From an uncultured Bacteroidales bacterium (lineage in GTDB: Bacteria > Bacteroidota > Bacteroidia > Bacteroidales > FEN-979): a DNA stretch of 64,000 nucleotides. A program made the position numbers and the translations under genes. This document shows, in pieces, positions 1,401-16,646 of the stretch (positions within the stretch are counted from its first letter, which is position 1; each line of letters starts with the position of its first letter). The DNA lies in assembly GCA_903926565.1 (NCBI GenBank), contig CAIYJU010000135.1, forward strand, positions 6,751 to 70,750. The letters are read 5' to 3'. The notes under the pieces are model-generated. The model was not told where the DNA came from and made no database searches. It saw only the letters and a list, made by a program, of their open reading frames with translations.

Positions 1401-1778
1401 TTACATCAGGTCACCCAGCGGACCCAGGTTGATGTTCAAATCCCGATCGGTGAGGTTAAAATGTTTTTTCAGCTCCTCCATCTTCATTTCCAGCTTCATC
1501 AGCGTTTCGCCAAGCCGTTCAATTTCCTCTTCCGATAACGAACCGCCGTCGACTCTTCGCATGGCCTGTTTTTCAACCAGTTTCCGGATAAGTTCGACAA
1601 GGGTAAGCACCAGTTTCGCCAGTCCGGAATCTGCATTTTCTGGCGTAAGCTTCAGTCTTGAATCTTCAGCTTTGGATGCCAGTTTACCGATCTCCTCTGA
1701 TATTCCATCGAACGACCCGGTGTTGAACAGTATTTTATTTTCACTCATGCAAGGACTATTGAATTTTGATTTCAACAA
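1401..1778 (-). CDS. gvpK: gas vesicle protein GvpK
   Basis: GLAKLVLTLVELIRKLVEKQAMRRVDGGSLSEEEIERLGETLMKLEMKMEELKKHF...LGPLGDLM is the GvpK signature. The true start is probably the internal Met at 1748 (MSENKIL), which removes the 23-nt overlap with the upstream gene. Confidence 0.9.
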   Translation of the reverse strand: MLKSKFNSPCMSENKILFNTGSFDGISEEIGKLASKAEDSRLKLTPENADSGLAKLVLTLVELIRKLVEKQAMRRVDGGSLSEEEIERLGETLMKLEMKMEELKKHFNLTDRDLNINLGPLGDLM

Positions 1779-2511
1779 AATTATAGGGGGGCCAGGGCCC
1801 GGTAAGGATAAAGTTTAATCCCTGATGTTTATTCTGCAAATCCTGAACGGAGCGGACCAACTGAATTTCAACATCTTTATCAAGTAAAAATACTGCATCG
1901 ATGATGTTCTTTGCAGAGGCCATTTTTTTAAATCTGCTTTCCGCGCATAACAGGGCAAGACTTACGGTGATCTCTGCAATGACTGTATCAGCGTAATCAA
2001 CAAGCAGCTCTTCAAGCCTGTGTTCTTTCAGCTTTTTATTGATATATTCCCGATACGCTGAAATTGTGATGCCCGGGTCAGCGGGCGGGCTGAGGACAGC
2101 CTCTGATTTCATCCGCAGTTCTGCCGCCAATTTTTCGGAATCACAGAATATTTTCAATCCGAATTCTTGTTTGTTTTCAACCCGGTCGAGGTTCTGAAGA
2201 AATTCATCCCGGTTACGGACAAGCATTTCCAAGATTGCACCGGATGATTCCAGGGTTGAACCAAATCGCATTGGAAGAACCGGATACCGCTGAAACAGCG
2301 CATCGATCACGCCGGCATACTCAATGGCCAGAGATTTGTCTGCAGTAAAATCACATCTTTCTATCTCGCCGGTTACGGCAGCAATTTCATCATGGAAAAC
2401 AGCAAACAAATCAGCACCTCCAAGGCCTTTCATCCCCGCCAGAAGTGAAGTTAGCCCGTCCTGATTGTGTTTGACAGATACAACGGCATATATCATCTTC
2501 TGCATTTCCAT
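1756..2511 (-). CDS. GvpF/GvpL family gas vesicle protein (paralog 5)
   Basis: 251 aa. The N-terminus (IYAVV...) and the C-terminal LTGPWPPYNFV motif are typical of GvpF/L. Confidence 0.85.
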   Translation of the reverse strand: MEMQKMIYAVVSVKHNQDGLTSLLAGMKGLGGADLFAVFHDEIAAVTGEIERCDFTADKSLAIEYAGVIDALFQRYPVLPMRFGSTLESSGAILEMLVRNRDEFLQNLDRVENKQEFGLKIFCDSEKLAAELRMKSEAVLSPPADPGITISAYREYINKKLKEHRLEELLVDYADTVIAEITVSLALLCAESRFKKMASAKNIIDAVFLLDKDVEIQLVRSVQDLQNKHQGLNFILTGPWPPYNFVEIKIQ

Positions 2512-2523
2512 GTTCAGGTTGAT

Positions 2524-2730
2524 TTATTTCTCCGTGATCATCTTGCCCGCCTTCAACTGTTCCATGGTCTCGACAGAACTCAGCATTAATTTTAAGCCGA
2601 GATAAACCAGGTCAACATCTGCAACCGAGATAACAATATCGCCCGTGAGGATGACACCTTTGTTAAGGACCCTGTCGAGCAATTCAAGGATGGTAATGTC
2701 CTTCGAACGGTCAATTACATTATCATACAT
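2524..2730 (-). CDS. small GvpA-family protein (GvpS/GvpM/GvpJ-like minor structural protein)
   Basis: 68 aa. ITILELLDRVLNKGVILTGDIVISVADVDLVYLGLKLMLSSVE matches the GvpA-fold core. The start shares 1 nt with the upstream stop (TAATG). Confidence 0.85.
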   Translation of the reverse strand: MYDNVIDRSKDITILELLDRVLNKGVILTGDIVISVADVDLVYLGLKLMLSSVETMEQLKAGKMITEK

Positions 2731-3524
2731 TACTGATTCTCTTTAATGGAGACAAAGCTGAATGGCGGCCACGGCCCGGTTCCTTCAAGTTCAAAACCGA
2801 TCCCGGCATACTTTTTCTGTAACCGGCCAAGGAGTGAAACAAATTCAATGGTTTTATCTTTAGGCAGAAGAAATGCGGCATTCAGGATCATCTTGTCATT
2901 TCTTCCCGAAAATTCTTTTGGAATAATATTAATCAGTTTGGCAGATGCGCTGAGTGCATTAAATTCATTGAAAAATTCCTGTCCGTAACTCTTGGATAAC
3001 CTGTCGATTTCAAGGTCAATCAAATCCGCTTTTTTCCTGGTTAACAGGAACGCCTTCCCCGGCGAGCTTGCCATAATCTGGTATTCGAGTTCGGCTGCTT
3101 CATGGCTCAAATTATCTATCTGTGCCTTCATGACATCCTGGTTACAGTAAAGTTTGACTGCCCATTCCTCCTTCCATTCAACAAGAAGGAGGTTTTGCAC
3201 AATTGCATTTGAGTATTCGCCCATGAATTTTTTCAGTGATTCTTCAGACCGATAGATTGTACCAAAATTGAAAGGAATGACGGTATGGTCCTCCATCAGC
3301 ATGCTGATAATCGTAACATGCGACCGAACATTCAAATCGAGCCAGGCAAGATCTGACAACTTTTTTTTCAGGTTTTCTTCCGAAAAGTCGCATTCCTGAA
3401 CATTTTTCACAACGGCGTAAAACCCTCCAGAACTTACAACCTGCAAACCTTCAAACTCCGGCCTTCCGCCAGGTTCTGACATACTTGCGGAAACGCAATA
3501 GGCATAAATCAATTCCCTGTTCAT
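2730..3524 (-). CDS. GvpF/GvpL family gas vesicle protein (paralog 4)
   Basis: 264 aa. LIYAYCV... N-terminus, MILNAAFLLPKDK motif, C-terminal GTGPWPPFSFV. Confidence 0.85.
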   Translation of the reverse strand: MNRELIYAYCVSASMSEPGGRPEFEGLQVVSSGGFYAVVKNVQECDFSEENLKKKLSDLAWLDLNVRSHVTIISMLMEDHTVIPFNFGTIYRSEESLKKFMGEYSNAIVQNLLLVEWKEEWAVKLYCNQDVMKAQIDNLSHEAAELEYQIMASSPGKAFLLTRKKADLIDLEIDRLSKSYGQEFFNEFNALSASAKLINIIPKEFSGRNDKMILNAAFLLPKDKTIEFVSLLGRLQKKYAGIGFELEGTGPWPPFSFVSIKENQ

Positions 3525-3577
3525 TACATTGGTAAAATTAGCCCCGTTACAACAACATTTCCTGTAATTAAATGCGT

Positions 3578-3850
3578 CTATTGAGAAACGCTGTCCATCC
3601 CTTCAAAGGAATTGAGTCTTTCGAAGGCGGTTATTTCCAGTTTATCATCCATCTTCACCAAATAAAAAAGCCTTACCTGTTTCGGCGGGAGGTTCATTGA
3701 TTTCAGGAAGGAATCATCCTCATAAACCTCGGCGATGGAATTCCAGTTCTCCTGAACCTTCTCAATTTTAATAACCGTAACGTCGTAACAGTTAATATTC
3801 TCTTTCAGGAAATTAACCACTGTTTTTTTCACATCGATAATATTGCTCAT
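3578..3850 (-). CDS. GvpO-like small protein
   Basis: 90 aa. The segment VTVIKIEKVQENWNSIAEVYED...LFYLVKMDDKLEITAFERL has the same layout I recall for haloarchaeal GvpO (..EGWRTVVEVVER...YEITLD..G.VTGYE..). Called from similarity by eye only. Confidence 0.5.
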   Translation of the reverse strand: MSNIIDVKKTVVNFLKENINCYDVTVIKIEKVQENWNSIAEVYEDDSFLKSMNLPPKQVRLFYLVKMDDKLEITAFERLNSFEGMDSVSQ

Positions 3851-3918
3851 TGTCTCCTCCAGTTATTTTATGTTTTCATAGTCACAGGGATGGTTTGCGG
3901 GTCTGAATGTATCCGGTG

Positions 3919-4155
3919 CTATCTGTTTTGTTTATCGGCTCTGATCCTTTCAAGTAATTTCAACAACTCGTCTTCTCTTTCGTCGTATTCCTCTTCGTTA
4001 ATTTCATCCATTTCAAATTTCAGCTGCAGGGCCATCAGCCTCTCCTTGATGGCTCCTTCATCCGACATTTCCCTGTCGATCACTTCATTTATTTTCTTCC
4101 CGATAAAAATAACTCCTTTTAACGGAGCCAACAGGATGTCGTCAATTAAAAACAT
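3919..4155 (-). CDS. gvpG: gas vesicle protein GvpG
   Basis: 78 aa. MFLIDDILLAPLKGVIFIGKKINEVIDRE...EINEEEYDEREDELLKLLE is the GvpG pattern. 1-nt gap to the upstream gene. Confidence 0.8.
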   Translation of the reverse strand: MFLIDDILLAPLKGVIFIGKKINEVIDREMSDEGAIKERLMALQLKFEMDEINEEEYDEREDELLKLLERIRADKQNR

Positions 4156-4156
4156 G

Positions 4157-4939
4157 TTAAACTCCTTTAGTCTGGATTACAAGGTTGACAAAATTATAGG
4201 GAGGCAGCGTTCCGACGTATTTGAACGTCATCAATTTCCCGTATTTTTCGTCGAGGTCGGTCACGGCCTTGTCGAAGTCCGGCTCCACCGTGTTTTTTAT
4301 GAGAAATGCCGCGTTAAGTATCATCATTTCGCCATAATTGTCGTTGATTTTCTGGTCGTCTGAAAGCGGAGTAAGAACATCCATGATCATGTTTTTGTAA
4401 TTTCCCGTCTCCTTCTTCAGCGCTTCGGCAACCATTTCGCCAATTTTCATGCGCTGATAATGTGTTTTATCGACGGGCAGGTTGATCAGTTTTCCGCGCA
4501 ATGTTTTTATTTCATCATATTTTTCAATGATACTTTCGTACAACGGGGCTTCATGTGCAAGTACCTTCAGGCCCAGTTCCTTCTTCCCATCCATTTTAAG
4601 AAGAAGGTCGTCAAATTTTTTATATTCCTTTGCCAGGATGTTCAGAAGGCCTGAATCATCGTCATATTCGGAAATGGTTGAAAACCGCACCGGGAGCACG
4701 GTGAATTGCTTCATCACCTCCTCCAGCACCTTTTCATGCGTTGTCATGTTAACCCTCCTGGCTTCATATTGTATGACCGGCGAATTACTTACAACAGCAG
4801 TGACATCCTTGTAATTGATGCCATACACCCGGTCGGAGCGGACACCAATTCCGATGGGTCCGAATTCGATCGGGCCGGAATGCCTGATAATCCCGTAAAT
4901 GTACTTTCCTTCCTTTGGTATTCCAGCTGCTTCGCTCAT
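4157..4939 (-). CDS. GvpF/GvpL family gas vesicle protein (paralog 3)
   Basis: 260 aa. KYIYGII... N-terminus, MILNAAFLIKN motif, C-terminal GTLPPYNFVNL. Confidence 0.85.
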   Translation of the reverse strand: MSEAAGIPKEGKYIYGIIRHSGPIEFGPIGIGVRSDRVYGINYKDVTAVVSNSPVIQYEARRVNMTTHEKVLEEVMKQFTVLPVRFSTISEYDDDSGLLNILAKEYKKFDDLLLKMDGKKELGLKVLAHEAPLYESIIEKYDEIKTLRGKLINLPVDKTHYQRMKIGEMVAEALKKETGNYKNMIMDVLTPLSDDQKINDNYGEMMILNAAFLIKNTVEPDFDKAVTDLDEKYGKLMTFKYVGTLPPYNFVNLVIQTKGV

Positions 4940-4961
4940 ATAATGATTCGATTTATATTAG

Positions 4962-5735
4962 TTACAATTCCCATTTTTCAGGAAATATTTTAAGGTCAAT
5001 AAAATTAAAGATCGGCAGGGGTGCGGTATAAACAAAGTCGCTCCGATCCTGGTAAGTCGCGCCAATACCGGCCATGATGTTGTCAAATTCGATCTCCCTG
5101 CCGCTGTTGACCAGGAAGGCAGTATTCATGAACACCGCATCGCTGCTTGTTTTATTGTGCTTATATTCGAACACCGACCGGCGAAATGCATCAATAATGT
5201 TGTCGGACTCCTCCGCTTTCTTTTCAAGCAGAAGGCGTTCGACCATATGACCCGCTTCGTCTATCTTCATGTTCCTCTCCTTTGAGTCGCCCAGTACTTC
5301 AATTTCAGCCCTGAGCTTTTGAAGTTCAACGTGTTGCCGGTCGATTTCCTGGTAGATGACACCCATGTTTTTCCAGGTTCCCCGCACATTCAGTTCCACC
5401 TTGTTTTCGAATTGCTTCAGCAGTTCCATAAACTCACTGTACCTGCGGTTCAGGAGATTCCTGATCTCATCCGGGGTTGCTGCGATGGTGCCGAACCTGA
5501 TGGGCAGGATGCTTCTGAATTCCTTCATCACCTCTTCTATCACTTTCTGGTGGGCCAGCATGTTTTCGGGGTTGACGACAAACCGACTTAGCGGATGATC
5601 ACTCACCACCATGCACAAGCCTTCGAACCCGATGGTTGAGACAAGGTCTGCACGTCCGCCCACGCCTATCGGCCCCAGGTTGATGTCATAATCTGATGCA
5701 ATGATGCAATAAATGTATTTTCCGTCGCGCTGCAT
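4962..5735 (-). CDS. GvpF/GvpL family gas vesicle protein (paralog 2)
   Basis: 257 aa. KYIYCIIAS...GPIGVGGR...VSDHP, MNTAFLVNS motif, C-terminal PLPIFNFIDL. Confidence 0.85.
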   Translation of the reverse strand: MQRDGKYIYCIIASDYDINLGPIGVGGRADLVSTIGFEGLCMVVSDHPLSRFVVNPENMLAHQKVIEEVMKEFRSILPIRFGTIAATPDEIRNLLNRRYSEFMELLKQFENKVELNVRGTWKNMGVIYQEIDRQHVELQKLRAEIEVLGDSKERNMKIDEAGHMVERLLLEKKAEESDNIIDAFRRSVFEYKHNKTSSDAVFMNTAFLVNSGREIEFDNIMAGIGATYQDRSDFVYTAPLPIFNFIDLKIFPEKWEL

Positions 5736-5736
5736 A

Positions 5737-6777
5737 TTAATCCTTTATTTTAACCAAAATCAAATTCCCGGCAACATCTTCCTTCGCCAGGGATATTACT
5801 TCATCTTTAACCGACTGTCTGACTGAAGCAGCATAGTCAAGCAGGGAGTGGTAGGCCTCAAGGATGATGTTGAAATTCTCAGTATCACTGCTGTCGTGAT
5901 TGTTGTCGGGATGAAATTGCTTTGCTTTTTCCAGGTAGGCCCTTTTTATCTCCTGCTCGGATATTTTCTCCCTGACACCCAGCGCTTTCCGTGCCTGATC
6001 TACCTTGTCGGCATTCAACGCAACAACCTCCAGCGTGAAAAAACTGTAACAGGGCAACGGGCCTATCAGTTTAAAATTCAGGACCCCCTGGTATTTTTCG
6101 TCAAGCATGTCAATTGCATGCTCAAACTTTTCCCTTTTATTCCTGTTTATTAAAAATGCAGAATTTAAGATCATCTCGTCATTCATCACTTCATGCATTT
6201 TGATATCGAGGCCGTAAGGGGATAATACATCCAGCACCTTCAGCTCAACATCCTTATTTTCGGTATCCAACCTCTCTTTTATCAGCATACCTACTTTTAC
6301 CTGATCAACTTTTGTCAGGGCATGATTGTTTTGCAAGAGTTCGACTTTCAGCGCATTGATTTCGGGATGGGTGGAAATATCCTGAAGCAGCCCGGGAAAA
6401 TCACCCCATGTTACAACCAGGTCTATTTCAGTCAGGTACTCAATCTTCTTCAGGGCATCTATGATCAGATCATGACCACAGGTAAGAATTTTGAGCACCT
6501 CATCCGTTGAAGTTACGATGGTGCCAAGCCTCATTGGGAGGATCATGGTGAATCCCTTCCGCTGGAGTTCTTCGATGGTTTCCTGGTGATGGACCAGCAA
6601 ATAAGCCAGGGATTCCCTGTCTGAAAAATTGACTTCGGAGCTGTCTCTTTCTGAAACAATGGCCGAAATATTTTGAAACGTAACCGCATAAACTCCCGAA
6701 TTTTCAAGAGTTTGAAATTGGGTTGTACCATAAAAATTGGGCACAATCCCATAGATGTATAATCCTTTTGCTGTCAT
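5737..6777 (-). CDS. GvpF/GvpL family protein fused to a C-terminal DnaJ-type J-domain
   Basis: 346 aa. Residues 1-250 are GvpF/L-like (LYIYGIV..., MILNSAFLINRNK, GPLPCYSFFTL). Residues about 258-320 read ARKALGVREKISEQEIKRAYLEKAKQFHPDNNHD..ENFNIILEAYHSLLD, a J-domain. The HPD tripeptide is at nt 5913-5905, verified on the DNA. Confidence 0.8.
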   Translation of the reverse strand: MTAKGLYIYGIVPNFYGTTQFQTLENSGVYAVTFQNISAIVSERDSSEVNFSDRESLAYLLVHHQETIEELQRKGFTMILPMRLGTIVTSTDEVLKILTCGHDLIIDALKKIEYLTEIDLVVTWGDFPGLLQDISTHPEINALKVELLQNNHALTKVDQVKVGMLIKERLDTENKDVELKVLDVLSPYGLDIKMHEVMNDEMILNSAFLINRNKREKFEHAIDMLDEKYQGVLNFKLIGPLPCYSFFTLEVVALNADKVDQARKALGVREKISEQEIKRAYLEKAKQFHPDNNHDSSDTENFNIILEAYHSLLDYAASVRQSVKDEVISLAKEDVAGNLILVKIKD

Positions 6778-6839
6778 ATCAGTTGGTTGGTTGAATAAAC
6801 CCTCCGGGTATTAAAAACCCGGAAGGTTTCGGGTTCCGC

Positions 6840-8999
6840 TTACTTCTTCGTTATGTTTTGCTTCAATACCAGTTGTATTGCTTCTTCAAAATGTGTTTCC
6901 AAAATTGATATTTCACCAGAATTCACCTTGCCATTGTCCCTGTTTTTTTCAATCAGTTCCCGGATGGCAAGCATTGCAGCTTTGCGGCATACAAATTCGA
7001 TATCCGACCCCGTCATGGTATCGGTTTTAAGAGCGAGCTTCGCGATGTTTACTTTTTTCCCAAGGGGTTTGTTCCTTGTATGTATATGGAATATCTGCTC
7101 CCTGGTTTTCACATCCGGCAATGGCAATTCGAAGATCAGGTCGAACCGGCCGCTTCTGAGCAGGGCGGGATCTATCAAATCGATCCTGTTGGTTGCTGCG
7201 AGTACAATAACGCCTTTCAAATCCTCAATCCCATCCATTTCTGTAAGAAACTGCCCGATAACTCTTTCAATTACGCCGGAACCTGAGCCATCGTTGCTGC
7301 GCCTGGGTGTCAGACTGTCAATTTCGTCGAGGAAGAGGATGCATGGAGATGCCTGCTTTGCCATCCTGAAGAGTTCGCGTACCCCTTTTTCCGATTCACC
7401 GATATAACGGCTCAGGATCTGGGGCCCTTTTACTGAAATGAAATTCACGCCGCTTTCGCTTGCCAGCGCTTTGGCCAGGTATGTTTTGCCGGTTCCCGGT
7501 TTCCCGTGAAGGATAATTCCCTTGGGGGGCCGTGTATCAGCTTTCTTAAACAGTTCAGCATACTGGAGCGGCCATTCCACTGTCTCTTTCAGTGCCTCCT
7601 TTATTTCGTCAAGGCCGCCAACATCTTCCCATTTCACATCAGGCACCTCTACGAAAACCTCCCTGATTGCCGAAGGTTCCACCTCTTTCATGGCATCCGT
7701 AAAGTTGTCCATGGTCACTTCCAGCGCCATCAATATTTCGTATGGAATTTCGGCCATCGCAAAATCGATTTGCGGCAATATTTTCCGCAGGGCGGTCATG
7801 GCGGCTTCCCGGGCCAGCGCTTCAAGATCGGCACCCACAAATCCGTGGGTGATTTCGGCCAGTTTTTCCATATCCACATCCATCGACAGCGGAATCCCCC
7901 GGGTGTGGATGAGGAGAATTTCCAGCCTTCCCTTTTTGTCGGGGATGGAGATTGAAATTTCACGGTCAAACCTTCCGGGTCTTCTCAGTGCGGGATCAAT
8001 GGAATTAGGGATGTTGGTCGCGCCGATCACGATGACCTTCCCTCTCGATTCAAGGCCATCCATCAATGACAACAGTTGGGCGACAACACGTTTTTCAACC
8101 TGTTTTTCTCCCCCCATCTCCTCCCTTTTGGGGGCAATGGCATCAATTTCATCGATAAAGATAATGGAAGGCGCATGGGCCTGGGCCTCCTCAAAAAGTT
8201 TACGGATCCGGCCTTCGCTCTCCCCGTAAAATTTACCCATGATCTCCGGGCCGGAGATGTTGATAAAATAGGCATCTGTTTCCTGTGCAACCGCCCTGAC
8301 AATGAGTGTTTTTCCGGTTCCCGGAGGCCCGTAGAGGAATACCCCCTTGGGTGGCTGGATCCCCAGCCGGTCAAATATTTCCGGATACTTGAGGGGAAGT
8401 TCAATCATCTCCCTGATACGCTGAACCTGGTTGCCAAGTCCGCCGATATCCTCGTAAGAGACCTTGCTCCGGTGCTCTCCGTCCTGCTTTGCCAGTTCAA
8501 GCTGAAAAATGGTATTCGGGTGGATCAGCACGATCCCCTCCGGGTTGACACCGGTAACCGTATAATTCACTGAGCGTGAGCCGAATAAATTCGCCCTCAC
8601 TTTATCGCCTTTTATCACAGGCAGCCCACTGAACAAAGAACCGATATATTTTGAGTCATCAGCCTTGAACAAAGAGCCTGATTTAGTGTCTGGCTTTAAC
8701 TTTATTTTTATCGCCTGGCGGAAGGTTGCTTTTTCAACAGTCACTTTCTCATCGATCCCTGCCTGGGCATTTTCCCTGGTAATCCCGTCAATTTGAATGA
8801 GGCGCTTGTCCCTGTCTTCCGGATAACAAGGCATGATTTTTACCGGTGTTGCACGCTTGCCTTCAATCACAACAAGGTCGCCACTTTCCAGGTCAAGCAA
8901 TTTCATGTCTTTCGGGTCGATCCTTGCGATGGCCCTTCCAACGTCCTTTACCAGGGCTTCCTTTACACGGAGGATTATGTCGCTTTTTGTTTTAGTCAT
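6840..8999 (-). CDS. Cdc48/VCP/VAT-like AAA+ ATPase (Cdc48-N domain plus two AAA+ modules)
   Basis: 719 aa. Cdc48-type N-domain ([40 protein letters not shown]...). Two Walker A motifs ([18 protein letters not shown]) and two Walker B motifs ([20 protein letters not shown]). Confidence 0.9.
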
Positions 9000-9008
9000 T
9001 GCTGAAAT

Positions 9009-9944
9009 TTATTCAAACAGGCACATTTTCAACTTATTCAGAGCATCCAGCCCTTTTATCTCTTCTGCGAACCTTTGCACTTCAACTTTGTTTAAATGAC
9101 GAAAGGTTTCGTTGATGCCGGTTAAATAAGGCAATTGGCTGGCTTTGCTCCGCCTGCAGAATCCGCATTCATCCGAAACCATCACATTGTTTACAATGAG
9201 CTGTCGTGCAACGATACCAGAACTGGCAAGAATCGACAGCAATCTTTCTGTTTCCCTCATTGCCATTGCTTCCGGAATGCAAACCGGGATAAATTCACAC
9301 CGGGTTGCATCGCGCAGGATGTTTTCAATCCTTTTGACAGTCCTTTTCAGGCTGAGTAAAAGCACATCCACGTCATCATGCTGGTAGGATCCTGAAAAAC
9401 TGGTGATCATGTACCGGTATTTCCACCTCATTCTTGCAGCCACCTTGATCCAGTCGTCCAATAACTTCGGAGAAGATATCAACCTTAAGGCATGCCCGGT
9501 GGGTGCAGTATCCACAACATATTTATCGTATTCCCCCTGTTCCATGAAATCGGTGATGGTTTTAAAACTCATCACCTCGTCGATGCCGGGAATCGACAGG
9601 GCAAGCATCTCTTCAATATCCTGGTTATCAAGATTTGTTGAAGTTTCGAGCAACTTTTTCAGTTCAGCCTGATGCGCACTGATAAATACTGAAAGCGCCT
9701 CGTCGGCAAATACTTCAATCGCAGAGAGGTTGGGGCTGCCATCTACTTTAACTACCTGGAATCCAATTTTCTGACCAAGGCAATCCGACACGGAATGCGC
9801 CGGATCAGTTGAGATAAGCAATGTTTTAAAATTTTCAGCCAGTGACATGGCTGTGGCAACGGCACAACTGGTTTTTCCAACACCGCCTTTTCCGCCAAAA
9901 ATGAGAAGTTTCAGGTCGCTGTTATCTAAGCCCTTCAGTCCCAT
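9009..9944 (-). CDS. ArsA/Get3(TRC40)-family P-loop ATPase
   Basis: 311 aa. Deviant Walker A GGKGGVGKTS, STDPAHSVSD, switch II DTAPTGHALRL, and a Get3-style CxxC (SDECGFCRR). 4-nt gap to hsp20 and 9-nt gap to the cdc48-like gene. Confidence 0.85.
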   Translation of the reverse strand: MGLKGLDNSDLKLLIFGGKGGVGKTSCAVATAMSLAENFKTLLISTDPAHSVSDCLGQKIGFQVVKVDGSPNLSAIEVFADEALSVFISAHQAELKKLLETSTNLDNQDIEEMLALSIPGIDEVMSFKTITDFMEQGEYDKYVVDTAPTGHALRLISSPKLLDDWIKVAARMRWKYRYMITSFSGSYQHDDVDVLLLSLKRTVKRIENILRDATRCEFIPVCIPEAMAMRETERLLSILASSGIVARQLIVNNVMVSDECGFCRRSKASQLPYLTGINETFRHLNKVEVQRFAEEIKGLDALNKLKMCLFE

Positions 9945-9948
9945 TGCG

Positions 9949-10467
9949 CTATTTTTTTATCCTGATCTCAAGGATGCCGTTTGTAAATTTATGCCTTAGA
10001 TTTTTCCTTTCGGCTTTTTCAGGAAGCAGCACTTCCTTGCGGTATGACCTGCTTTTGTTGACTGCTGAAATTTCAAGGATATCTTCTTTCAAATCAATAA
10101 CAATGTCATTTTCCTCGATTCCCGGCATTTCTGCAATAATCACAAGTTCATTCTTTTCATTAAAGATGTCGGTAATGGGTTCCCGTTCTTCATCCACTTT
10201 GGGTCCCTCGGGTGTTTTTTTGATATTGCCGAAAGTTTCTACTTTCGGGCTTCCGCCAACTGCCGTGTTTATTGTAAAGCCATAGACACCTTTCATTCCT
10301 TTTTTGATGTGGTCAAAATTGAGCTCCCCTTCCTTTTTAATGCCACCCTTTTCATCGAGTTTCCCTGCAAGGTCAACAAGTTTCTCAATACCTTTGAACA
10401 GATCACCAAGTCCGAAAAATCCGGTATCGGCTTCGTCCTTTTTTTTATTATTCTTATCGTTGTCCAT
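9949..10467 (-). CDS. Hsp20/alpha-crystallin family small heat-shock protein (GvpH-position protein)
   Basis: 172 aa. C-terminal alpha-crystallin domain ELVIIAEMPGIEENDIVIDLKEDILEISA...RKEVLLPEKAE...KFTNGILEIRIKK. Confidence 0.8.
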   Translation of the reverse strand: MDNDKNNKKKDEADTGFFGLGDLFKGIEKLVDLAGKLDEKGGIKKEGELNFDHIKKGMKGVYGFTINTAVGGSPKVETFGNIKKTPEGPKVDEEREPITDIFNEKNELVIIAEMPGIEENDIVIDLKEDILEISAVNKSRSYRKEVLLPEKAERKNLRHKFTNGILEIRIKK

Positions 10468-10529
10468 TGTGAATCATGTTAATACGGTTTATAGAAAAAC
10501 TATTCCAGCCTCCGCCTGAACGGGGGAAG

Positions 10530-10829
10530 TTACTCCGGCCTGTTCATCGCCTCCAGTTTCTCCAGACGCGACACCAGCTCTTCCTGGTGCTGCATCAGCT
10601 CCTTCTCCCTGGCTTTTGTTGAAAGGTACGTATCTTCCTGCCACCAGTTGATCCCCATCTCCATCGCCTTGTCGACCGAAGCGATCAGCAACCTGATTTT
10701 GATGGTCAGCAGATCAATATCCGCTATCTGAATTTTTATATCTCCTGCAATTACGATTCCCTTGTCGAGGACTCTTTCAAGAATATCGGCAAGACCTGTC
10801 GCCTGAATGGAGTGGGTAGGTTCTGACAT
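10530..10829 (-). CDS. gvpJ: gas vesicle protein GvpJ (GvpA family with C-terminal extension)
   Basis: 99 aa. LADILERVLDKGIVIAGDIKIQIADIDLLTIKIRLLIASVDKAMEMGINWW is the GvpJ-type core. Confidence 0.85.
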   Translation of the reverse strand: MSEPTHSIQATGLADILERVLDKGIVIAGDIKIQIADIDLLTIKIRLLIASVDKAMEMGINWWQEDTYLSTKAREKELMQHQEELVSRLEKLEAMNRPE

Positions 10830-10839
10830 TGCATTTTTT

Positions 10840-11154
10840 TTAATAATCTATTGACATGGTCTTCCATGCTTTCTCATCATCCTTCTTTGGTTTTTTACTC
10901 TTTTCTGCAGGTTTGACGGAATGCATGTCCCCGGCTTTTTCATCATAATAGGCCTGGATCTCTTTCAGCCTGTCCTGGATGATTTCAAGTCTCAGTAAGA
11001 TCCGGACCTCTTCACTTTTCAGCCGGGTTCTCTCCTTTTCGAACATGTACAATTTTATAAAATCCGAATCTTCCTTGTTTGGAATACCCGATTTAACGAC
11101 ATTCTGCATGCTCTTGATGCTCTGAAGTCCCTTTAGTGCAGTTGATATTGGCAT
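10840..11154 (-). CDS. small coiled-coil protein directly downstream of gvpN (possible GvpV-position analog), function unknown
   Basis: 104 aa. Heptad-like central segment (LYMFEKERTRLKSEEVRILLRLEIIQDRLKEIQ) and a Lys-rich tail. Tightly packed in the operon. No family recognised with confidence. Confidence 0.55.
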   Translation of the reverse strand: MPISTALKGLQSIKSMQNVVKSGIPNKEDSDFIKLYMFEKERTRLKSEEVRILLRLEIIQDRLKEIQAYYDEKAGDMHSVKPAEKSKKPKKDDEKAWKTMSIDY

Positions 11155-11182
11155 GACATTGATTTTTTAATGCGGATGGATG

Positions 11183-12118
11183 TTATTGCGCAATTTTTAA
11201 ACTGGTGTATTGTTCTATCAGTTCGTTCACGATGAATTTCACCTTTTCCTGGTTGGTTTTTGAGCCAATCCTGCTGGTTTCTGACGTAAGAATATCCTGG
11301 CAGATTTTCCGGAACATATCTTTTGATTTCGAGGGTGTTGTTTTCAGGGTTGCCAGTGTTTTGGCAATCATGATGGAACCGCGGATGGTCGGATCGAATT
11401 CCGTTTTCCCTGATTCACGCAAACCTCTCACAATTTTAACGATAATTTCGGTATCCTTTAACGACAATTGCGATTTGGCCCTGGTAATCTGCAATTCGGT
11501 TTCATAGTCGAAATGGTCCAGGTCCATGGTCACCATGCGGTCGCGCAGTGCATCCTGCGTGCGGTTAACACCGGCATACTCTTCAGGGTTTGACGTAAAG
11601 ATGGCACGGAATTCAGGGTGTACCTTCATATAGTAATCCTCCTCCTTTGCTGCCGATGTGCTTAACATCCGCTCCTGAAGAATCGGAAGCAGGATATTGT
11701 TGGCCTCAGGACGTGAACGCGTAAATTCATCGTAGATCAGGGTGAACCCGTTTTTCACTGCGATGGTTAAACGGTTGTTCACCCATTGCTTGGTCATGTC
11801 CTCTTCATACTTATGAACAGAATGGATGAATTTGTCGTCAAGCTTTTTATATTTATACCCCTGTTCACTTCCGATCAAATCGGAAGTTTTATACTCGGCA
11901 TCACCATGGATAATGACAACAGGCCGGCCGATTTTACTTGCCAGGTGCATGGCTACCGTCGTTTTCCCGGTACCTGAAGGCCCCCTGAAATGAACCGGGA
12001 ATCCAGCCTGGATATACGTAAGGCCGCGGCTGGTGATGTCCCTTATGTAATCCGTTTCTACAAAATTGGACATCGGCTTCAGTTCAAGCACGGTATTCAT
12101 CTCATTGTTGTTGCTCAT
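11183..12118 (-). CDS. gvpN: gas vesicle protein GvpN (MoxR/CbbQ-like AAA+ ATPase)
   Basis: 311 aa. FVETDYIRDITSRGLTYIQAGFPVHFRGPSGTGKTTVAMHLA... and Walker B LIYDEFTRS are typical GvpN features. Confidence 0.9.
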   Translation of the reverse strand: MSNNNEMNTVLELKPMSNFVETDYIRDITSRGLTYIQAGFPVHFRGPSGTGKTTVAMHLASKIGRPVVIIHGDAEYKTSDLIGSEQGYKYKKLDDKFIHSVHKYEEDMTKQWVNNRLTIAVKNGFTLIYDEFTRSRPEANNILLPILQERMLSTSAAKEEDYYMKVHPEFRAIFTSNPEEYAGVNRTQDALRDRMVTMDLDHFDYETELQITRAKSQLSLKDTEIIVKIVRGLRESGKTEFDPTIRGSIMIAKTLATLKTTPSKSKDMFRKICQDILTSETSRIGSKTNQEKVKFIVNELIEQYTSLKIAQ

Positions 12119-12163
12119 TGTTGGTATAGTTTGTGCAAATGTGCTGGTTAATTTTGATTTGTA

Positions 12164-12343
12164 TTAAAAAGGCAGGTTCGGCAGCTGCTTCAGCGTCTCC
12201 TCCCAGATGGTCCTGGCTTCCTCAATCTCCTTTGTTATCTCTTCCCTTGCTGTCAGGAACGCGATCTTCCTTTCCCTGAACCTTTCCAGTGCAGCCTGCC
12301 GTTTGATCATGCTGTTCCTGATACCCGCTCCGACGTTTTTCAT
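12164..12343 (-). CDS. unlisted 59-aa ORF between the zinc-finger gene and gvpN (hypothetical)
   Basis: Below the ORF-track length cutoff. Hand translation: MKNVGAGIRNSMIKRQAALERFRERKIAFLTAREEITKEIEEARTIWEETLKQLPNLPF, stop TAA at 12166-12164. Same strand as the operon, 15 nt after the upstream stop and 45 nt before the gvpN ATG. Confidence 0.35.
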   Translation of the reverse strand: MKNVGAGIRNSMIKRQAALERFRERKIAFLTAREEITKEIEEARTIWEETLKQLPNLPF

Positions 12344-12358
12344 TTTCAGATACCCTGA

Positions 12359-12673
12359 TCAGGCGCCAAACCCTTTGCCTTTGCATTGCGTGCACGGCAG
12401 GTTATCTCCTGATTTGCCAGTCCCTTTGCATTTCAGGCACACATTGCTGCCGGCAACGTGATTGCTCCCTTTTCCGCTACACACAATACACGGCACCCTT
12501 GCTCCCAGCGGGTTTTTACCGGACCCGGCACAAAAAACGCATTTCATCAAGGGTTTCTCAACATTCACACGTCCGAGGCCATTGCATGCCAGGCAATGTG
12601 AGATTGAGGAAAGCAGGTCAAAAGGATCCTTGCCTGTGCCGCTGCAAAACGGGCAATTAAAAACTTCTATCAT
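12359..12673 (-). CDS. stand-alone DnaJ-type cysteine-rich zinc-finger protein (six CxxCxGxG repeats)
   Basis: 104 aa containing CPFCSGTG, CLACNGLG, CVFCAGSG, CIVCSGKG, CLKCKGTG and CTQCKGKG. This is the CxxCxGxG repeat of the DnaJ central domain, with no J-domain or C-terminal domains. Confidence 0.8.
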   Translation of the reverse strand: MIEVFNCPFCSGTGKDPFDLLSSISHCLACNGLGRVNVEKPLMKCVFCAGSGKNPLGARVPCIVCSGKGSNHVAGSNVCLKCKGTGKSGDNLPCTQCKGKGFGA

Positions 12674-12713
12674 GGGGCAAAATCATTTGGAAAATGAATG
12701 ACGAAGAACCGGG

Positions 12714-13922
12714 TTATTTCAACGGGAAGTAAATGTTGTCAATTTTCTGCACTTTACCCTCGTCGAGCAAACCTTTGGCGGTAAAGCCAAGTTTCATGCG
12801 TGTTTCTCCCAGTGGTGCTTCCATCTCCGAGATCTTTACGCCCTTGGGATGTTTATTAATAAAATCCAGCACCTTATCTTCAAGTTTCAGGGGCTCTTCC
12901 TTAAATGTGGCAAATGCAAGAACTTCCTGGGCCGGAACGGCACTTACTGCCTCAGCCGGGGCTGCCTTTGCAGGGGCTGCAGGGGCCTCTTTTTTCGCCT
13001 CCTGTTTTTCAGCTTTCTTCGGTGCCTGTTTGGGTGCGGGAACAACGCCAGTTTTCCTGATATGGTCCATCGCACTTTTCATTTTATTCCATTCGGCCGA
13101 TGCCTCAACCCGGTTTTGCAGCAGATCATCCAGCATTGCACCGGTTGATTTCTGTACATCCCTGACCTCTTTCCGGATATCTTTAATAGAGACATGAATG
13201 CCTTTCATGATTGCATTAAAATCGCTGATCCGTTCGTTTTCGCCTTTGGCAAGATCTTTTCTCAGTTTCTGGGCCATTTTCTGGTTTTCCCTGCCGATTT
13301 CCGACAATCTTTTCTGGAACCCGGAAAGCAGGGTCCTCGTGTACTCAACCCTTTCTCCAAGGTTCTTGGCAAGTTCCGCTCTCAGTTCTGCCGACATGTC
13401 CTGATGTTCCTTTTCAAACCGGTCGAGCATATCATTCGTATTCAGGAAAATTGCCGAAACTTCATCATTGATACTTTTGATATCAGCATTGATGTTTGTC
13501 ATGAGGGCATCAAACTCCTTCATACGTGTTTTTTCATTTTGCGCCCGTCCGGCTCTTTCTTCAGCAAAGGACTTCCCAAGTTCCTCAGCCATCTGCGACC
13601 GCTCAACGGTAAATTCATTGATCATGTTAAACGTGGAAGTTTGAATCGCCACTACTTCCTTCTGGATGGAGGCAATTGTTCCATGGATTCCTGTCATTAA
13701 TCCCTTGAAGTTGCCCAGCCGTTCTTTCTCCCCGCGGGCGAGGCCTTTTCTTAATGCAGCAGCATTTGCATTTAAAGCGGCAGCCATCTCCTGGTGGTCC
13801 TTGCGGAAACCGTCAAGCGTTATCTGCACATCGTTAACAAGTTCTTCATTTTCCCTGATGCGCTGCCTGAATGATGCAAGCAACTCTTCTGTCAGGTTCT
13901 TCATGTCTGATGCTAGTCCCAT
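12714..13922 (-). CDS. repeat-containing coiled-coil protein with Pro/Ala/Lys linker and small C-terminal globular (winged-helix-like?) domain; candidate non-canonical GvpC analog
   Basis: 402 aa. Internal repeats are visible by eye: RKGLARGEKERLGNFKGLMTGIHGTIASIQKEVVAIQTST vs RKDLAKGENERISDFNAIMKGIHVSIKDIRKEVRDVQKST vs RAQNEKTRMKEFDALMTNINADIKSINDEVSAIFLNT. Also FRKDHQEMAAAL vs FEKEHQDMSAEL. These are followed by APKQAPKKAEKQEAKKEAPAAPAKAAPAEA and a roughly 60-aa tail. Confidence 0.75.
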   Translation of the reverse strand: MGLASDMKNLTEELLASFRQRIRENEELVNDVQITLDGFRKDHQEMAAALNANAAALRKGLARGEKERLGNFKGLMTGIHGTIASIQKEVVAIQTSTFNMINEFTVERSQMAEELGKSFAEERAGRAQNEKTRMKEFDALMTNINADIKSINDEVSAIFLNTNDMLDRFEKEHQDMSAELRAELAKNLGERVEYTRTLLSGFQKRLSEIGRENQKMAQKLRKDLAKGENERISDFNAIMKGIHVSIKDIRKEVRDVQKSTGAMLDDLLQNRVEASAEWNKMKSAMDHIRKTGVVPAPKQAPKKAEKQEAKKEAPAAPAKAAPAEAVSAVPAQEVLAFATFKEEPLKLEDKVLDFINKHPKGVKISEMEAPLGETRMKLGFTAKGLLDEGKVQKIDNIYFPLK

Positions 13923-13964
13923 GTTGTTATCTCCTATTTTAGAATTATTGATATGTTACCTGAA

Positions 13965-14621
13965 TTAATTGATCTCCTTGATAATTTGATTTTTTATGCT
14001 TTTTATATCTTTTACCTGGATCTGATCGCCTTTTTCGAGCAAACTTTCCAGGCACTCCATCATCCTGCCGTGCATGTTCTGAAAATCCATGAAGGTCTTC
14101 ATTACTGTTTCCTTCCTCATTTCCTGTACTTTAGAAACCTGGGAAAGTTGCTCCTTGATGATGTTGATTTTTTCGGTGGCATCCTGCGATGTAATGTCCC
14201 TGATGCCGAGCAGGCTTAATTTAAGCGACTGGGCAGTCTCTTTCTGGGATTCGATAAATGAGAGGAACAAAATTTCAGCGGCCCGTTCTTTTTCGTCGAG
14301 CGCGCAAAGAATGCCTGACATCATCGAATAATAATCCTTTTTACGGAGGGATCCGTTTTTTGCCATAATTTCACAAATTCTGAAATTCAGGACTTCCCGC
14401 TCCTTTTTCAGATCGTTGAGAGAATTATGCACGTTGTCGAACAGGCAGTGCGATGATTCTGTAATATTTTCAGATGACTGGAAAGCTGTTTGAATTTTTT
14501 GAATGCGGGTTTCGTAGGAGGTTATGATGTTGTCAAAAAAACCATCGATGTTTAATTCGGGCAGTGGATTCATTCTTGGTAGTTTATTTGCAGGTTTTCG
14601 GGAAAGATGACTTTTTGACAT
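13965..14621 (-). CDS. coiled-coil protein, distant paralog of the 402-aa repeat protein; function unknown
   Basis: 218 aa. Shares motifs with the neighbour: TSYETRIQK vs ASFRQRIRE, and MAKNGSLRKKDYYSMMSGI vs LAKGENERISDFNAIMKGI. It is the first gene after gvpA. The start may instead be the Met at codon 17. Confidence 0.7.
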   Translation of the reverse strand: MSKSHLSRKPANKLPRMNPLPELNIDGFFDNIITSYETRIQKIQTAFQSSENITESSHCLFDNVHNSLNDLKKEREVLNFRICEIMAKNGSLRKKDYYSMMSGILCALDEKERAAEILFLSFIESQKETAQSLKLSLLGIRDITSQDATEKINIIKEQLSQVSKVQEMRKETVMKTFMDFQNMHGRMMECLESLLEKGDQIQVKDIKSIKNQIIKEIN

Positions 14622-14764
14622 TCCCTCATGATAATTATCGGGCCGGGGGTTGGTGTGATCGGGATACTGCAGGCGTGGAAAAAAGAAATTCTTGGTAACT
14701 CATGCTTTCGTGAATAATCAGGGAAGGATGTTTTAGCAAGAATAGCTGTTAATCTGAATGCAAA

Positions 14765-14968
14765 TTAAGCTGCTTTTGCAGTTAATCCGATGGCTTCAGC
14801 ATACTTCAGGTATGTTTCAACAGAGGCAACAACGATTCTTGCTTCAATTGCAAGCAATTCGATACCTACCAAAGAAACTCTTACCCATGCATCAACTACA
14901 ACACCTTTGTCAAGGATACGGTCGATAACTTCAACGAGGCTTGATGATCCGATAGTCTTTTCTACCAT
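14765..14968 (-). CDS. gvpA: major gas vesicle structural protein GvpA
   Basis: 67 aa. [55 protein letters not shown] is near-canonical GvpA. An SD-like GGAG sits about 9 nt upstream of the ATG, which is unusual for this window. Confidence 0.97.
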
Positions 14969-15254: not shown

Positions 15255-16646
15255 TTAATCTTCGCTTTTATTCCCCGGAATATTGTACTTTTTCATTTTC
15301 CGGCTCAGGGCATCGCGGTGTATTCCGAGGGCATCTGCTGCAGCCTGCTGGTTGAACTTGCAAGCCAGCAGCACCTTACGGATCATCTTTATCTCAATCG
15401 TTTTCAAATTTGCTGAATCTGCCTCAGGAACATGCAATTCCGGCTTCGGTCCGTTAAGCGGGAAATCACGGACTTCAAGCCTGTTGCCTTTGCACAGGAT
15501 GGCTGCTCTTTCGACCAGGTTTCTAAGTTCCCGCACATTTCCGGGAAAATCGTATTTCACGAGCACATCAACGGCCTCCTTCGAAACATGGAGGGCAGGT
15601 TTGCTGAATTTCGAGGCATACACTTCAATAAAATAGTTCAGGAGAGGCTTGATATCTTCTGGTCTCTCCCGTAATGCCGGGATGTGAATGTGCAGTGTAT
15701 TGAGCCGGTGGAGGAGGTCGAGCCGGAATTTCTTCTTTGCAACCCTCTTATTAATATCGTGATTGGTTGCTGAAATAATGCGGAAGTTGGTCCGGATCTG
15801 GGCAGTATCGCCAACACGGGTTATCACCTTCTCTTCAGAAGCGCGCAGGATCTTTGCCTGAAGGTTGAGTGGCATATCCGCAATTTCATCCAGGAAAAGT
15901 GTCCCCCCGTTGCATACTTCAAAAAAACCCATTTTATCGGAGACGGCACCGGTAAATGAGCCTTTCTTATGACCAAAAAATTCACTTTCAAGAAGTGTTT
16001 CGGTAATGGCGCTGCTGTTTACCGCACCAAAAATATGATCTTTCCTGTTACTCGAATAGTGTATGATCCTTGCTATGTTCTCCTTGCCAGTTCCACTCTC
16101 CCCGGTAATCAGCACATTGGCATCAGGGTAATTCGCTGCTGCAAGGGCACTTTCAAAAACCTCGAGGATCCGGGGACTGACACCAATAAACTGCCGGTCG
16201 ATTTTCTCTTCAAGGGACTTCGAGATCAATGAGTTCTTCTCCTCCATCTGCTTCAGCCGTCGCTGCATCTGAAGATATTTCTGCGTCCGTTCTATGGCAA
16301 TCTGTATGTCAAGAAACCTGAATGGTTTGCGCAGGTAATCGAATGCCCCGAGACGCATGGCCTTGATTACGGTATCCATGTCACCGTGTGCAGAGATGAC
16401 GATAACCTCCATGAAAGGATAGTCACTTTTTACCTCTTTCAGAATATCGAGTCCATTCACACCCGGCAGGCGCACATCGAGGATGAGCAGGTCAATTGCG
16501 TGGATACTCATGATTTTTTTTCCTTCTGCAGCCGTGTTGGCCTCATACGAATCAAATTCCGAATCGACGAAAAATCCGCTTAACTCTTCCGTAAATTGCT
16601 TTTCATCGTCGAGGATCAGGATCTTGATCTTATTTTTCGCTTCCAT
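15255..16646 (-). CDS. sigma54-dependent Fis-family response regulator (NtrC-type: REC + AAA+ + HTH)
   Basis: 463 aa. REC domain (ILILDDE...DLLILDVRLPG), sigma54-interaction core (GESGTGKENIARIIH, GSFTGA loop, FLDEIADM) and C-terminal HTH (QQAAADALGIHRDALSRKMKKY). Confidence 0.92.
   Translation of the reverse strand: MEAKNKIKILILDDEKQFTEELSGFFVDSEFDSYEANTAAEGKKIMSIHAIDLLILDVRLPGVNGLDILKEVKSDYPFMEVIVISAHGDMDTVIKAMRLGAFDYLRKPFRFLDIQIAIERTQKYLQMQRRLKQMEEKNSLISKSLEEKIDRQFIGVSPRILEVFESALAAANYPDANVLITGESGTGKENIARIIHYSSNRKDHIFGAVNSSAITETLLESEFFGHKKGSFTGAVSDKMGFFEVCNGGTLFLDEIADMPLNLQAKILRASEEKVITRVGDTAQIRTNFRIISATNHDINKRVAKKKFRLDLLHRLNTLHIHIPALRERPEDIKPLLNYFIEVYASKFSKPALHVSKEAVDVLVKYDFPGNVRELRNLVERAAILCKGNRLEVRDFPLNGPKPELHVPEADSANLKTIEIKMIRKVLLACKFNQQAAADALGIHRDALSRKMKKYNIPGNKSED

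Follow-up and report, generated by a model that had tools for sequence, protein, structure and literature searches.

Keeping the very hydrophobic gas-vesicle protein GvpA soluble and feeding it into a growing gas-filled shell is a problem that limits the use of gas vesicles as acoustic reporter genes. Without chaperones, GvpA-family proteins end up in inclusion bodies, as summarized in the gas-vesicle review literature, and only 5 of 15 native gvp clusters made vesicles in Escherichia coli, where a cluster of the Desulfobacterium vacuolatum type does form them (PMC10344784). Chaperone-type genes have been noticed in gvp clusters before. In 2010, Castillo and Saier described arsA homologues and hsp20 in the gvp clusters of Polaribacter irgensii, Pelodictyon luteolum, Geobacter uraniireducens, Anabaena/Nostoc and an acidobacterium, and proposed that the ATPase energizes a step of vesicle biogenesis and that Hsp20 serves as a chaperone (PMC2963123). 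A single-cell genomics paper of 2020 also found hsp20 beside gvp genes (PMC7325909). Here, we report an analysis of a gvp cluster in a stretch of 64,000 nucleotides (nt) from an uncultured Bacteroidales bacterium (contig CAIYJU010000135.1, positions 6,751 to 70,750; hereafter, the window) and, in particular, of five chaperone-type genes that occupy positions 5737-12673 within this cluster.

The window cluster shares with those of Castillo and Saier the genes gvpN, gvpL/F, gvpG, gvpJ, gvpK and gvpM along with an arsA homologue and hsp20. It differs in the ATPase, which in the 2010 clusters is a two-domain protein of about 600 amino acids (aa) and, in the window and most of the loci studied here, a single-domain protein of about 311 aa with a Get3-like CxxC motif. 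Furthermore, the 2010 paper does not mention a Cdc48-type ATPase, a fusion of a GvpF/L paralog with a J-domain (hereafter, F::J), a DnaJ-type zinc finger or a DnaK paralog. Current gas-vesicle reviews make no mention of Hsp20, ArsA, Cdc48 or DnaJ, and our literature search, which mostly covered journals outside subscription, retrieved no account of gvp clusters that carry a Cdc48/VAT ATPase, an F::J fusion, Get3, a DnaK paralog or a DnaJ zinc finger. Public annotations name these genes singly, as 'CDC48 family AAA ATPase' or 'GvpL/GvpF/DnaJ domain'. An earlier note on this DNA, made from the sequence without database searches, was not aware of any description of this composition; within the scope of our search, this stands for Cdc48, the J-domain fusion and the zinc finger, and fails for arsA and hsp20, known from the 2010 paper (PMC2963123). 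The novelty lies in reading the parts together and in the evidence of co-inheritance, not in a new protein family: two of the five parts were known before, and one of these, as detailed below, is related to the partly characterized GvpH.

The gvp cluster of the window consists of 20 genes that run on the minus strand from gvpA (first) to gvpK (last), spanning positions 1401-14968, and contains three matches to PF00741, five to PF06386, and matches to TIGR02640, a GvpG model and PF05121. In the order of the genes from gvpA, the five chaperone-type products are a stand-alone DnaJ-type zinc-finger protein of 104 aa (12359..12673; PF00684, 39.2 bits against a cut-off of 32.7), a GvpH-like protein of 172 aa with a small heat-shock fold (9949..10467; PF00011, 32 bits, cut-off 20.8; NF041800, 134 bits), a single-domain Get3/ArsA-family ATPase of 311 aa (9009..9944; TIGR00345, 248 bits, cut-off 135), a Cdc48/VAT-type double-ring AAA+ ATPase of 719 aa (6840..8999; TIGR01243, 907 bits, cut-off 802.65) and the F::J fusion (5737..6777, with the J-domain at about 5836-5985; PF06386, 159.6 bits; PF00226, 48.3 bits, cut-off 27.8). 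Interspersed among them are orf59, gvpN, orf104 and a gene for a GvpJ-like protein of 99 aa. The earlier note had listed these five functions on one strand with short gaps, an observation that we confirm because each of the five proteins passes at least one curated family cut-off and the gaps within 5737-12673, computed from the table of open reading frames (ORFs), are 1-62 nt. We see in this gvp cluster, here in a Prolixibacteraceae/Draconibacterium-like Bacteroidota genome, a widespread, 'extended' type, and in this region its accessory core; alongside GvpA/J/S, GvpN, GvpF/L, GvpG, GvpK and GvpO-like genes, such a cluster encodes a proteostasis module of its own. Judging from the sequences and by analogy with known chaperone systems, this module is fairly probably a co-inherited line that would hold, extract and deliver aggregation-prone subunits of the GvpA family.

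Recurrence of the five genes was surveyed in loci anchored on gvpA, with one genome per species of the Genome Taxonomy Database (GTDB). The best 80 of 501 loci by similarity to the window GvpA were analyzed by searching their six-frame ORFs with the window proteins, and those 43 whose sequence extends 9.5 kb or more downstream of gvpA, which span about 15 phylum-level labels, were considered informative. Cdc48 was found in 36 of these 43 loci, the GvpH-like protein in 31, ArsA in 29, the J-domain in 20, the zinc finger likewise in 20, and all five in 11; the J-domain counts are underestimates because the loci stop 10 kb from gvpA. Gene order is strongly conserved: Cdc48 is the immediate successor of ArsA in every one of the 35 loci encoding both, ArsA comes after Hsp20 in 32 loci, and the J-type GvpF paralog comes after Cdc48 in 30. 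The recurrent arrangement can be written as A-o218-o402-(ZnF)-(o59)-N-(o104)-(J)-Hsp20-ArsA-Cdc48-F::J-F-F-G. It is complete or nearly so in Bacteroidota, Chlorobium phaeovibrioides, Ignavibacteriota, Planctomycetota, Spirochaetota, Nitrospinota, Elusimicrobiota and NC10, represented mostly by metagenome-assembled genomes (MAGs); the isolates among the carriers are Flavobacterium sp. LS1P28 and C. phaeovibrioides, the contig of the latter stopping inside the gene after Cdc48. Among the loci scanned, the closest is that of a Draconibacterium sp. MAG, with a GvpA 100% identical to that of the window and a Cdc48 match of 1560 bits.

The same architecture emerged when the search started from the chaperones. 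The homologue searches covered the best 120 matches, all of them close orthologues, and the contexts of Cdc48 and F::J orthologues in other assemblies (Bacteroidales MAGs, a MAG whose protein is labeled 'Marinimicrobia' by NCBI, and Flavobacterium sp. LS1P28) had this architecture each time. The association between the chaperone genes and gvp is beyond chance because the same genes occur in the same order next to gvpA in many lineages. In addition, the pairwise distances of Cdc48, the Hsp20/GvpH-like protein and ArsA correlate with those of GvpN (r = 0.93-0.97), which fits inheritance as one unit. The proposal of the earlier note that these genes belong to the gvp cluster and are inherited with it is thus upheld: they do recur next to gvp genes in related genomes. 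A variant arrangement combines GvpH and Cdc48 without ArsA and is found in Desulfobacterota, Alphaproteobacteria and Actinomycetota.

The Hsp20-fold protein consists of an alpha-crystallin domain and a conserved N-terminal region of about 95 aa. Its closest match in the Protein Data Bank (PDB) is the alpha-crystallin domain of an archaeal small heat-shock protein (sHsp; 4rzk, E 3e-13), and its sequence stops at ...GILEIRIKK, the strand that closes this domain; the C-terminal extension with an IxI/V motif, which drives the formation of large oligomers in small heat-shock proteins, is absent. It does not match PF05455, the Pfam model of GvpH, at E<=0.01. In a tblastn search of plasmids, the gvp clusters of Octadecabacter arcticus and Methylosinus sp. 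C49 proved to contain homologues of full length. The Methylosinus gene is annotated as gvpH by the Prokaryotic Genome Annotation Pipeline and is followed, one gene further on, by a 'CDC48 family AAA ATPase'; its product shares 29% identity with the window protein along the full length (BLASTP, E 4e-20) and passes PF05455 (28.9 bits, cut-off 22). In an hhalign comparison, the profile of 43 gvp-linked homologues aligned with Halobacterium GvpH with a probability of 96.6% (E 6.7e-10) over residues 15-178 of 182, and pairwise BLASTP of the window protein itself against Halobacterium GvpH gave E 2e-6 over the N-terminal 130 residues. These comparisons identify the window 'Hsp20' as homologous to GvpH, an accessory protein already known.

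In Halobacterium salinarum, where it is encoded in the p-vac gvpFGHIJKLM operon, GvpH is accessory and non-essential; vesicles formed without it are weaker, and it blocks aggregation of the GvpA-family protein GvpM (PMC9501494, PMC6107691), such that it 'might act as chaperone' (PMC6107691, PMC9501494). This reported behavior fits the holdase idea. The haloarchaeal and window proteins are homologous over their full length and differ in that the latter scores on PF00011 and the archaeal Hsp20 model NF041800, not on the Pfam GvpH model; moreover, GvpI, the heterodimer partner of haloarchaeal GvpH, has no homologue among the conserved unassigned ORFs of the window cluster by hhalign. The alpha-crystallin holdase of the earlier note therefore keeps its fold (PF00011) and loses its novelty: one of the five proposed new functions is a known Gvp, because the Hsp20-fold protein is a GvpH homologue.

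The Cdc48-type ATPase has the full domain complement of its family, with PF02359 (CDC48_N), PF02933 (CDC48_2) and two copies of PF00004. Its top PDB match is VAT of Thermoplasma acidophilum (754 bits), followed by p97/Cdc48 (about 633 bits). Walker A and B motifs are intact in both D1 and D2, and each ring has an aromatic pore loop (KFYG in D1, RYIG in D2). The Walker A lysine, the Walker B Asp-Glu, the arginine fingers and the D1 pore-loop tyrosine are each conserved in 45 of 45 homologues, and both rings appear to be catalytically intact. The window enzyme resembles the archaeal VAT/Cdc48 unfoldase in the succession of an N domain, D1 and D2, in a TIGR01243 score above cut-off and in aromatic loops in both rings. 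It differs in being bacterial, in its location inside an organelle-biogenesis operon with no proteasome context, and in its C-terminus (...QNITKK), where the HbYX motif for docking to the 20S proteasome is absent. In two Actinomycetota MAG loci (L048 and L054), gvpA is flanked on either side by a gene for a Cdc48-type ATPase, so that each locus has two.

The product of the gene directly preceding Cdc48 has the deviant Walker A motif (GKGGVGKT), the switch II (DTAPTGH) and the CxxC of Get3. Among 32 homologues, the P-loop is conserved in all, the switch II in 29-32 and the CxxC in 27-32. The PDB matches are Chlamydomonas ARSA1 (224 bits), Methanocaldococcus jannaschii Get3 (163 bits) and E. coli ArsA (114 bits). 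The alignment with M. jannaschii Get3 covers the full length (E 1e-46) and places the window CxxC on the zinc-binding CDFC of the dimer interface, whereas E. coli ArsA aligns only over residues 13-161, in the N-terminal part. The equivalent of the Get3 helical subdomain (W165-Y187) aligns with archaeal Get3 and is almost invariant in the orthologues. An AlphaFold2 model, computed from an alignment of 35 close orthologues (74-83% identical), reached a mean predicted local distance difference test score (pLDDT) of 50.2 and a predicted template modeling score (pTM) of 0.44, a quality too low for a fold search. Unlike the ArsA ATPase of arsenite pumps, which joins two halves in one chain and is linked to ars genes, the window protein is a single domain, and domain scans found no arsB/acr3 or arsR in the gvp cluster. 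On these alignments, the ATPase is Get3-like and not an arsenite-pump subunit.

With the Get3/TRC40 family (archaeal 3ug6/3zq6; chloroplast ARSA1, 5zme), the protein shares the deviant Walker A, the DTAPTGH switch II, the aligned CxxC and a full-length match. It is shorter, with 311 aa against 324-354 aa in archaeal and fungal Get3, and its cluster has neither a receptor gene nor a tail-anchored client; domain scans of the cluster detected no genes for receptors of the Get1/2 type (WRB/CAML) or for pre-targeting factors. Of the five parts, the Get3-like protein is the one whose role is hardest to assign. Its constant pairing with Cdc48 suggests that both act on the same client. In the Methylosinus plasmid pMSC49b, the ArsA slot between gvpH and Cdc48 is filled by a hypothetical protein of 193 aa with only a weak match to an HD domain (L086:9522-10103). 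A further variant occurs in heterocystous cyanobacteria (Nostoc, Tolypothrix, Calothrix and Aliinostoc; loci L063, L068, L070, L073 and L080, at about 16.3-20.2 kb in each), where the gvp genes are directly followed by a two-domain ArsA of about 640 aa and a double-ring AAA protein of about 620 aa without an N domain. These cyanobacterial ArsA and AAA genes lie outside the Anabaena flos-aquae gene set used in acoustic reporter genes.

In the F::J fusion, PF00226 spans residues 265-314 and contains the HPD motif (FHPD), which is kept in 140 of 141 sequences. The family comprises at least 455 protein clusters at E<=1e-10, and each of the best 120 has both domains; a Pirellulales MAG also encodes the fusion. 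In locus L054, a GvpF/L protein has a weak J-domain match that falls just short of the cut-off (27.2 against 27.8 bits). A DnaK paralog of 599-601 aa follows gvpK in two of eight full-length contexts, those of Flavobacterium sp. LS1P28 and the Bacteroidales MAG GCA_001768515.1, with a TIGR02350 score of 923 bits (cut-off 823); with an adjoining ORF, it occupies L085:15318-17828 and L001:16435-18948, and the context is also seen in L002. The presence of these paralogs lends indirect support to an Hsp70 acting with the J-domain fusion, and the recruitment of Hsp70 through the J-domain, as put forward in the earlier note, gains weight from their position directly after gvpK. The DnaK paralog is accompanied by an ORF of 229-230 aa from an unassigned family, a possible co-chaperone gene; neither of the two is present in the window, and in locus L090 a similar ORF of 227 aa follows gvpK without DnaK.

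The zinc-finger protein consists of six evenly spaced CxxCxGxG motifs, starting at residues 7, 27, 45, 62, 79 and 94, and all six are present in 34 of 48 homologues; a sequence search of the PDB gave no match at E<=0.1. It is comparable to stand-alone DnaJ-type zinc fingers, such as plant BSD2 and anti-TRAP, in being small, in consisting of CxxCxGxG repeats only and in passing PF00684. Its six motifs predict three zinc centers instead of two, and the comparison with BSD2, which serves the assembly of a single oligomeric client, Rubisco, as a chaperone, is no more than an analogy.

The identities of the genes, the integrity of their catalytic motifs, their conserved synteny and their inheritance with gvp genes are directly established; the clients, the order of the steps and the need for the module in assembly are what we infer in the following scheme. 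The GvpH-type protein would hold aggregation-prone subunits of the GvpA family. The Get3-like ATPase, as a dimer, would shield a hydrophobic segment, in GvpA/J/S or in the N-terminal helix of GvpG rather than in a classical tail anchor, and would release it in an ATP-dependent manner. The VAT-like Cdc48 hexamer may thread or extract subunits from holdase complexes or from off-pathway amyloid-like assemblies. The J-domain of one GvpF/L paralog would bring DnaK to GvpF-bound GvpA; in split-GFP assays, GvpF was the sole Gvp that interacted with GvpA (PMC9501494). Finally, the six-motif zinc-finger protein may be an additional holdase of the DnaJ type.

We propose this hold, extract and deliver scheme because the component classes match the triad of sHsp, Hsp70/J-protein and AAA+ disaggregase. 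The likeness to the sHsp-Hsp70/J-protein-Hsp100 (ClpB/Hsp104) system extends to the alpha-crystallin holdase, the J-domain and an AAA+ motor, a double-ring hexamer whose pore loops are aromatic, together with DnaK in the clusters of some relatives. The gvp set differs in that its motor belongs to the Cdc48/VAT family, not to ClpB, that its J-domain resides on a client-specific adaptor (GvpF/L) instead of a generic DnaJ, and that its genes share an operon with those of a single client family; in function, the analogy is a predicted one.

Several observations weigh against this proposal. To our knowledge, the model clusters of Halobacterium, Anabaena flos-aquae, Bacillus megaterium and Serratia form vesicles without Cdc48, Get3 or J-domain genes, and therefore the module cannot be a universal requirement. 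Some clusters that keep Hsp20 and Cdc48 are devoid of ArsA, some of the J-domain and some of the zinc finger; the five parts do not form an obligate unit. No Hsp70 gene was found in the 64-kb window, so that in this organism the housekeeping DnaK would have to serve. By hydropathy, no cluster protein has a C-terminal hydrophobic helix resembling a tail anchor, the most hydrophobic segments being the GvpA core, the GvpG N-terminus and the 68-aa GvpA-family protein GvpS68; literal Get3-style targeting thus lacks an obvious client, and the targeting factor of the earlier note finds no support in that sense. With regard to the survey, the loci were ranked by similarity to the window GvpA, and their frequencies are not population estimates; many phylum labels derive from the titles of MAG records and may reflect mis-binning; and correlated distances are partly expected for any genes that share a genome history. 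We find it doubtful that the module is a complete, client-dedicated and ATP-driven relay of GvpH-type sHsp, Get3-like ATPase, VAT-like Cdc48, GvpF::J with DnaK and a finger with three zinc centers that is integral to, and required in, its hosts across many phyla.

Cdc48/VAT enzymes are segregases and unfoldases that extract subunits from stable assemblies, and the same parts could serve turnover instead of assembly. Under this explanation, vesicles that have collapsed, are damaged or exceed the need, as well as misassembled ribs, would have their GvpA pulled out by Cdc48 with the help of GvpH and the Get3-like protein, for recycling or to lower buoyancy. The match to VAT as the top PDB hit, the aromatic residues in both pore loops and the invariant D1 tyrosine (45/45) all speak for this role, as does the ability of the model clusters to assemble vesicles without such an enzyme, which places it outside the minimal assembly set. 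Nevertheless, the genes lie in the middle of a biogenesis operon, between gvpN/gvpJ and gvpF/L with gaps of 1-62 nt, and therefore the module would be made together with the assembly factors. The cluster encodes no protease partner, its Cdc48 has no HbYX tail, and the J-domain is fused to GvpF/L, a GvpA-binding assembly factor. We know of no active dismantling step in gas vesicles and consider turnover unlikely to be the main function.

A regulatory role for the ATPases deserves attention given the surroundings of the cluster. Upstream of gvpA, on the minus strand as is every gene between 228 and 20059, lie genes for a sigma-54-dependent response regulator of the NtrC type (15255..16646; Response_reg, Sigma54_activat and HTH_8) and a hybrid histidine kinase with several PAS domains (16655..20059; Response_reg, PAS, HisKA and HATPase_c), the latter syntenic in relatives. 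The regulator is syntenic in L001, L003, L085, L089, L090 and the Methylosinus plasmid, and all inspected contexts have an upstream sigma-54 activator except L091, in which none was called. The NtrC-type protein, paired with the histidine kinase, likely regulates the gvp cluster, as its domains and position indicate; the arrangement of activator and kinase recalls GvrA of Serratia. A TGGCAC element is located 69 nt upstream of gvpA, with a non-canonical -12 element (TGGCACAAGAGGTAAA), and the canonical TGGCAC-N5-TTGC is present in several relatives. An intrinsic-terminator scan, with a model unsuited to Bacteroidota, found no intergenic terminator-like sites inside 5737-12673, and the counts of sigma-70 promoters and terminators equaled the shuffled expectation in scans whose models do not fit Bacteroidota.

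In haloarchaea, the P-loop protein GvpD lowers the levels of the activator GvpE, and by analogy the ATPases of the extended clusters might control the amount or activity of a Gvp or a regulator, for example by sequestering or unfolding it, the structural subunits not being chaperoned at all. Bacterial clusters of this type lack GvpD and GvpE yet have extra NTPases, ArsA-like proteins are P-loop NTPases like GvpD, and the cluster adjoins the sigma-54 activator and the PAS kinase. Conversely, Pfam and NCBIfam scans gave no match to PF07088/GvpD, the partners of the ATPases are all of protein-folding classes (alpha-crystallin fold, J-domain, DnaJ zinc finger and, in some relatives, DnaK), and GvpH has reported anti-aggregation activity; this explanation appears quite improbable. 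That the genes are general stress or housekeeping chaperones that merely happen to lie in the gvp region, as might be thought from the generic nature of all five proteostasis families and from one paper that took hsp20 beside gvp genes as heat-shock control (PMC7325909), is hardly credible given the conservation of order and adjacency over about 15 phylum-level labels, the physical fusion of the J-domain with a Gvp across at least 455 clusters of proteins, the homology of the Hsp20 to GvpH, and the location inside a gvp cluster of every Cdc48, F::J and ArsA orthologue with an inspected context.

If the module did prove to be such a complete and required relay, this would be the first defined cellular job for bacterial homologues of Cdc48 and Get3, namely, the handling of an amyloid-like shell protein, and might also explain the failure of many gvp clusters to form vesicles in E. 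coli. The conserved module points to concrete steps of assembly or quality control, and to parts that could be added to engineered clusters, and it would give a physiological role to Cdc48/VAT and Get3 homologues, which so far have been little understood in bacteria.

The remaining genes of the cluster include both recognizable gvp genes and conserved ORFs of unassigned family. The major shell protein GvpA (67 aa; 14765..14968) has 501 relatives in genome contigs, many of them 83-100% identical. It is directly followed by orf218 (13965..14621), a conserved gene with homologues in 29 of the 43 informative loci, and orf402 (12714..13922), which encodes a helical repeat protein with only sub-threshold matches to DUF948 and apolipoprotein and is found in 24 of 43 loci. 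Next to the zinc-finger gene lies orf59 (12164..12343), a small ORF conserved mostly in Bacteroidota clusters and syntenic in L001-L026, followed by gvpN (11183..12118; an AAA_5-type ATPase; TIGR02640, 346 bits, cut-off 267), orf104 (10840..11154; syntenic in many loci) and the GvpJ-like member of the GvpA family (10530..10829; PF00741, 62.2 bits; top NCBIfam match halo_gas_GvpJ). Neither orf218 nor orf59 nor orf104 matches a Pfam or NCBIfam family.

Beyond the F::J gene are two GvpF/L paralogs (4962..5735, PF06386, 175.8 bits; 4157..4939, 202.3 bits) and gvpG (3919..4155), whose product of 78 aa has a hydrophobic N-terminal helix and matches NF045779 with 35.6 bits (E 8e-9), below the 85-bit cut-off; the syntenic gene of relatives matches PF05120. 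These are followed by orf90 (3578..3850), a GvpO-like ORF of 90 aa with a weak match to PF05800 and an hhalign probability of 80% against Halobacterium GvpO, a GvpF/L paralog (2730..3524; PF06386, 156.4 bits), the GvpS/M-like GvpS68 (2524..2730; PF00741, 57.8 bits), another GvpF/L paralog (1756..2511; PF06386, 156.3 bits) and the last gene, gvpK (1401..1778; PF05121, 118.1 bits), beyond which lies carA. The five GvpF/L paralogs (1756-6777) compare with one or two in the model clusters; only one carries a J-domain, and relatives have an equal count.

Three internal repeats of the form '...KGIH.SI.DI.KEV..VQ.ST..M...' and a linker rich in Ala, Pro and Lys characterize the product of orf402. In clusters of this type, it may take the place of GvpC as the outer-shell protein; hhalign found no similarity to haloarchaeal GvpC. 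Compared by hhalign with all 14 Halobacterium Gvp proteins, the products of orf104, orf59, orf218 and orf402 gave probabilities below 2%, and orf104, considered as a counterpart of GvpI, was dropped for want of any such relationship. Elsewhere in the window, sorting domains of the type IX secretion system (T9SS) are encoded, which mark the genome as one of Bacteroidota, and a segment of low guanine-cytosine content (34% compared with about 47%) at 38557-40553 contains genes for an RloB-like protein and an AAA_21 (AbiEii/OLD-like) ATPase, a pair typical of small islands of the anti-phage or toxin-antitoxin-like kind.

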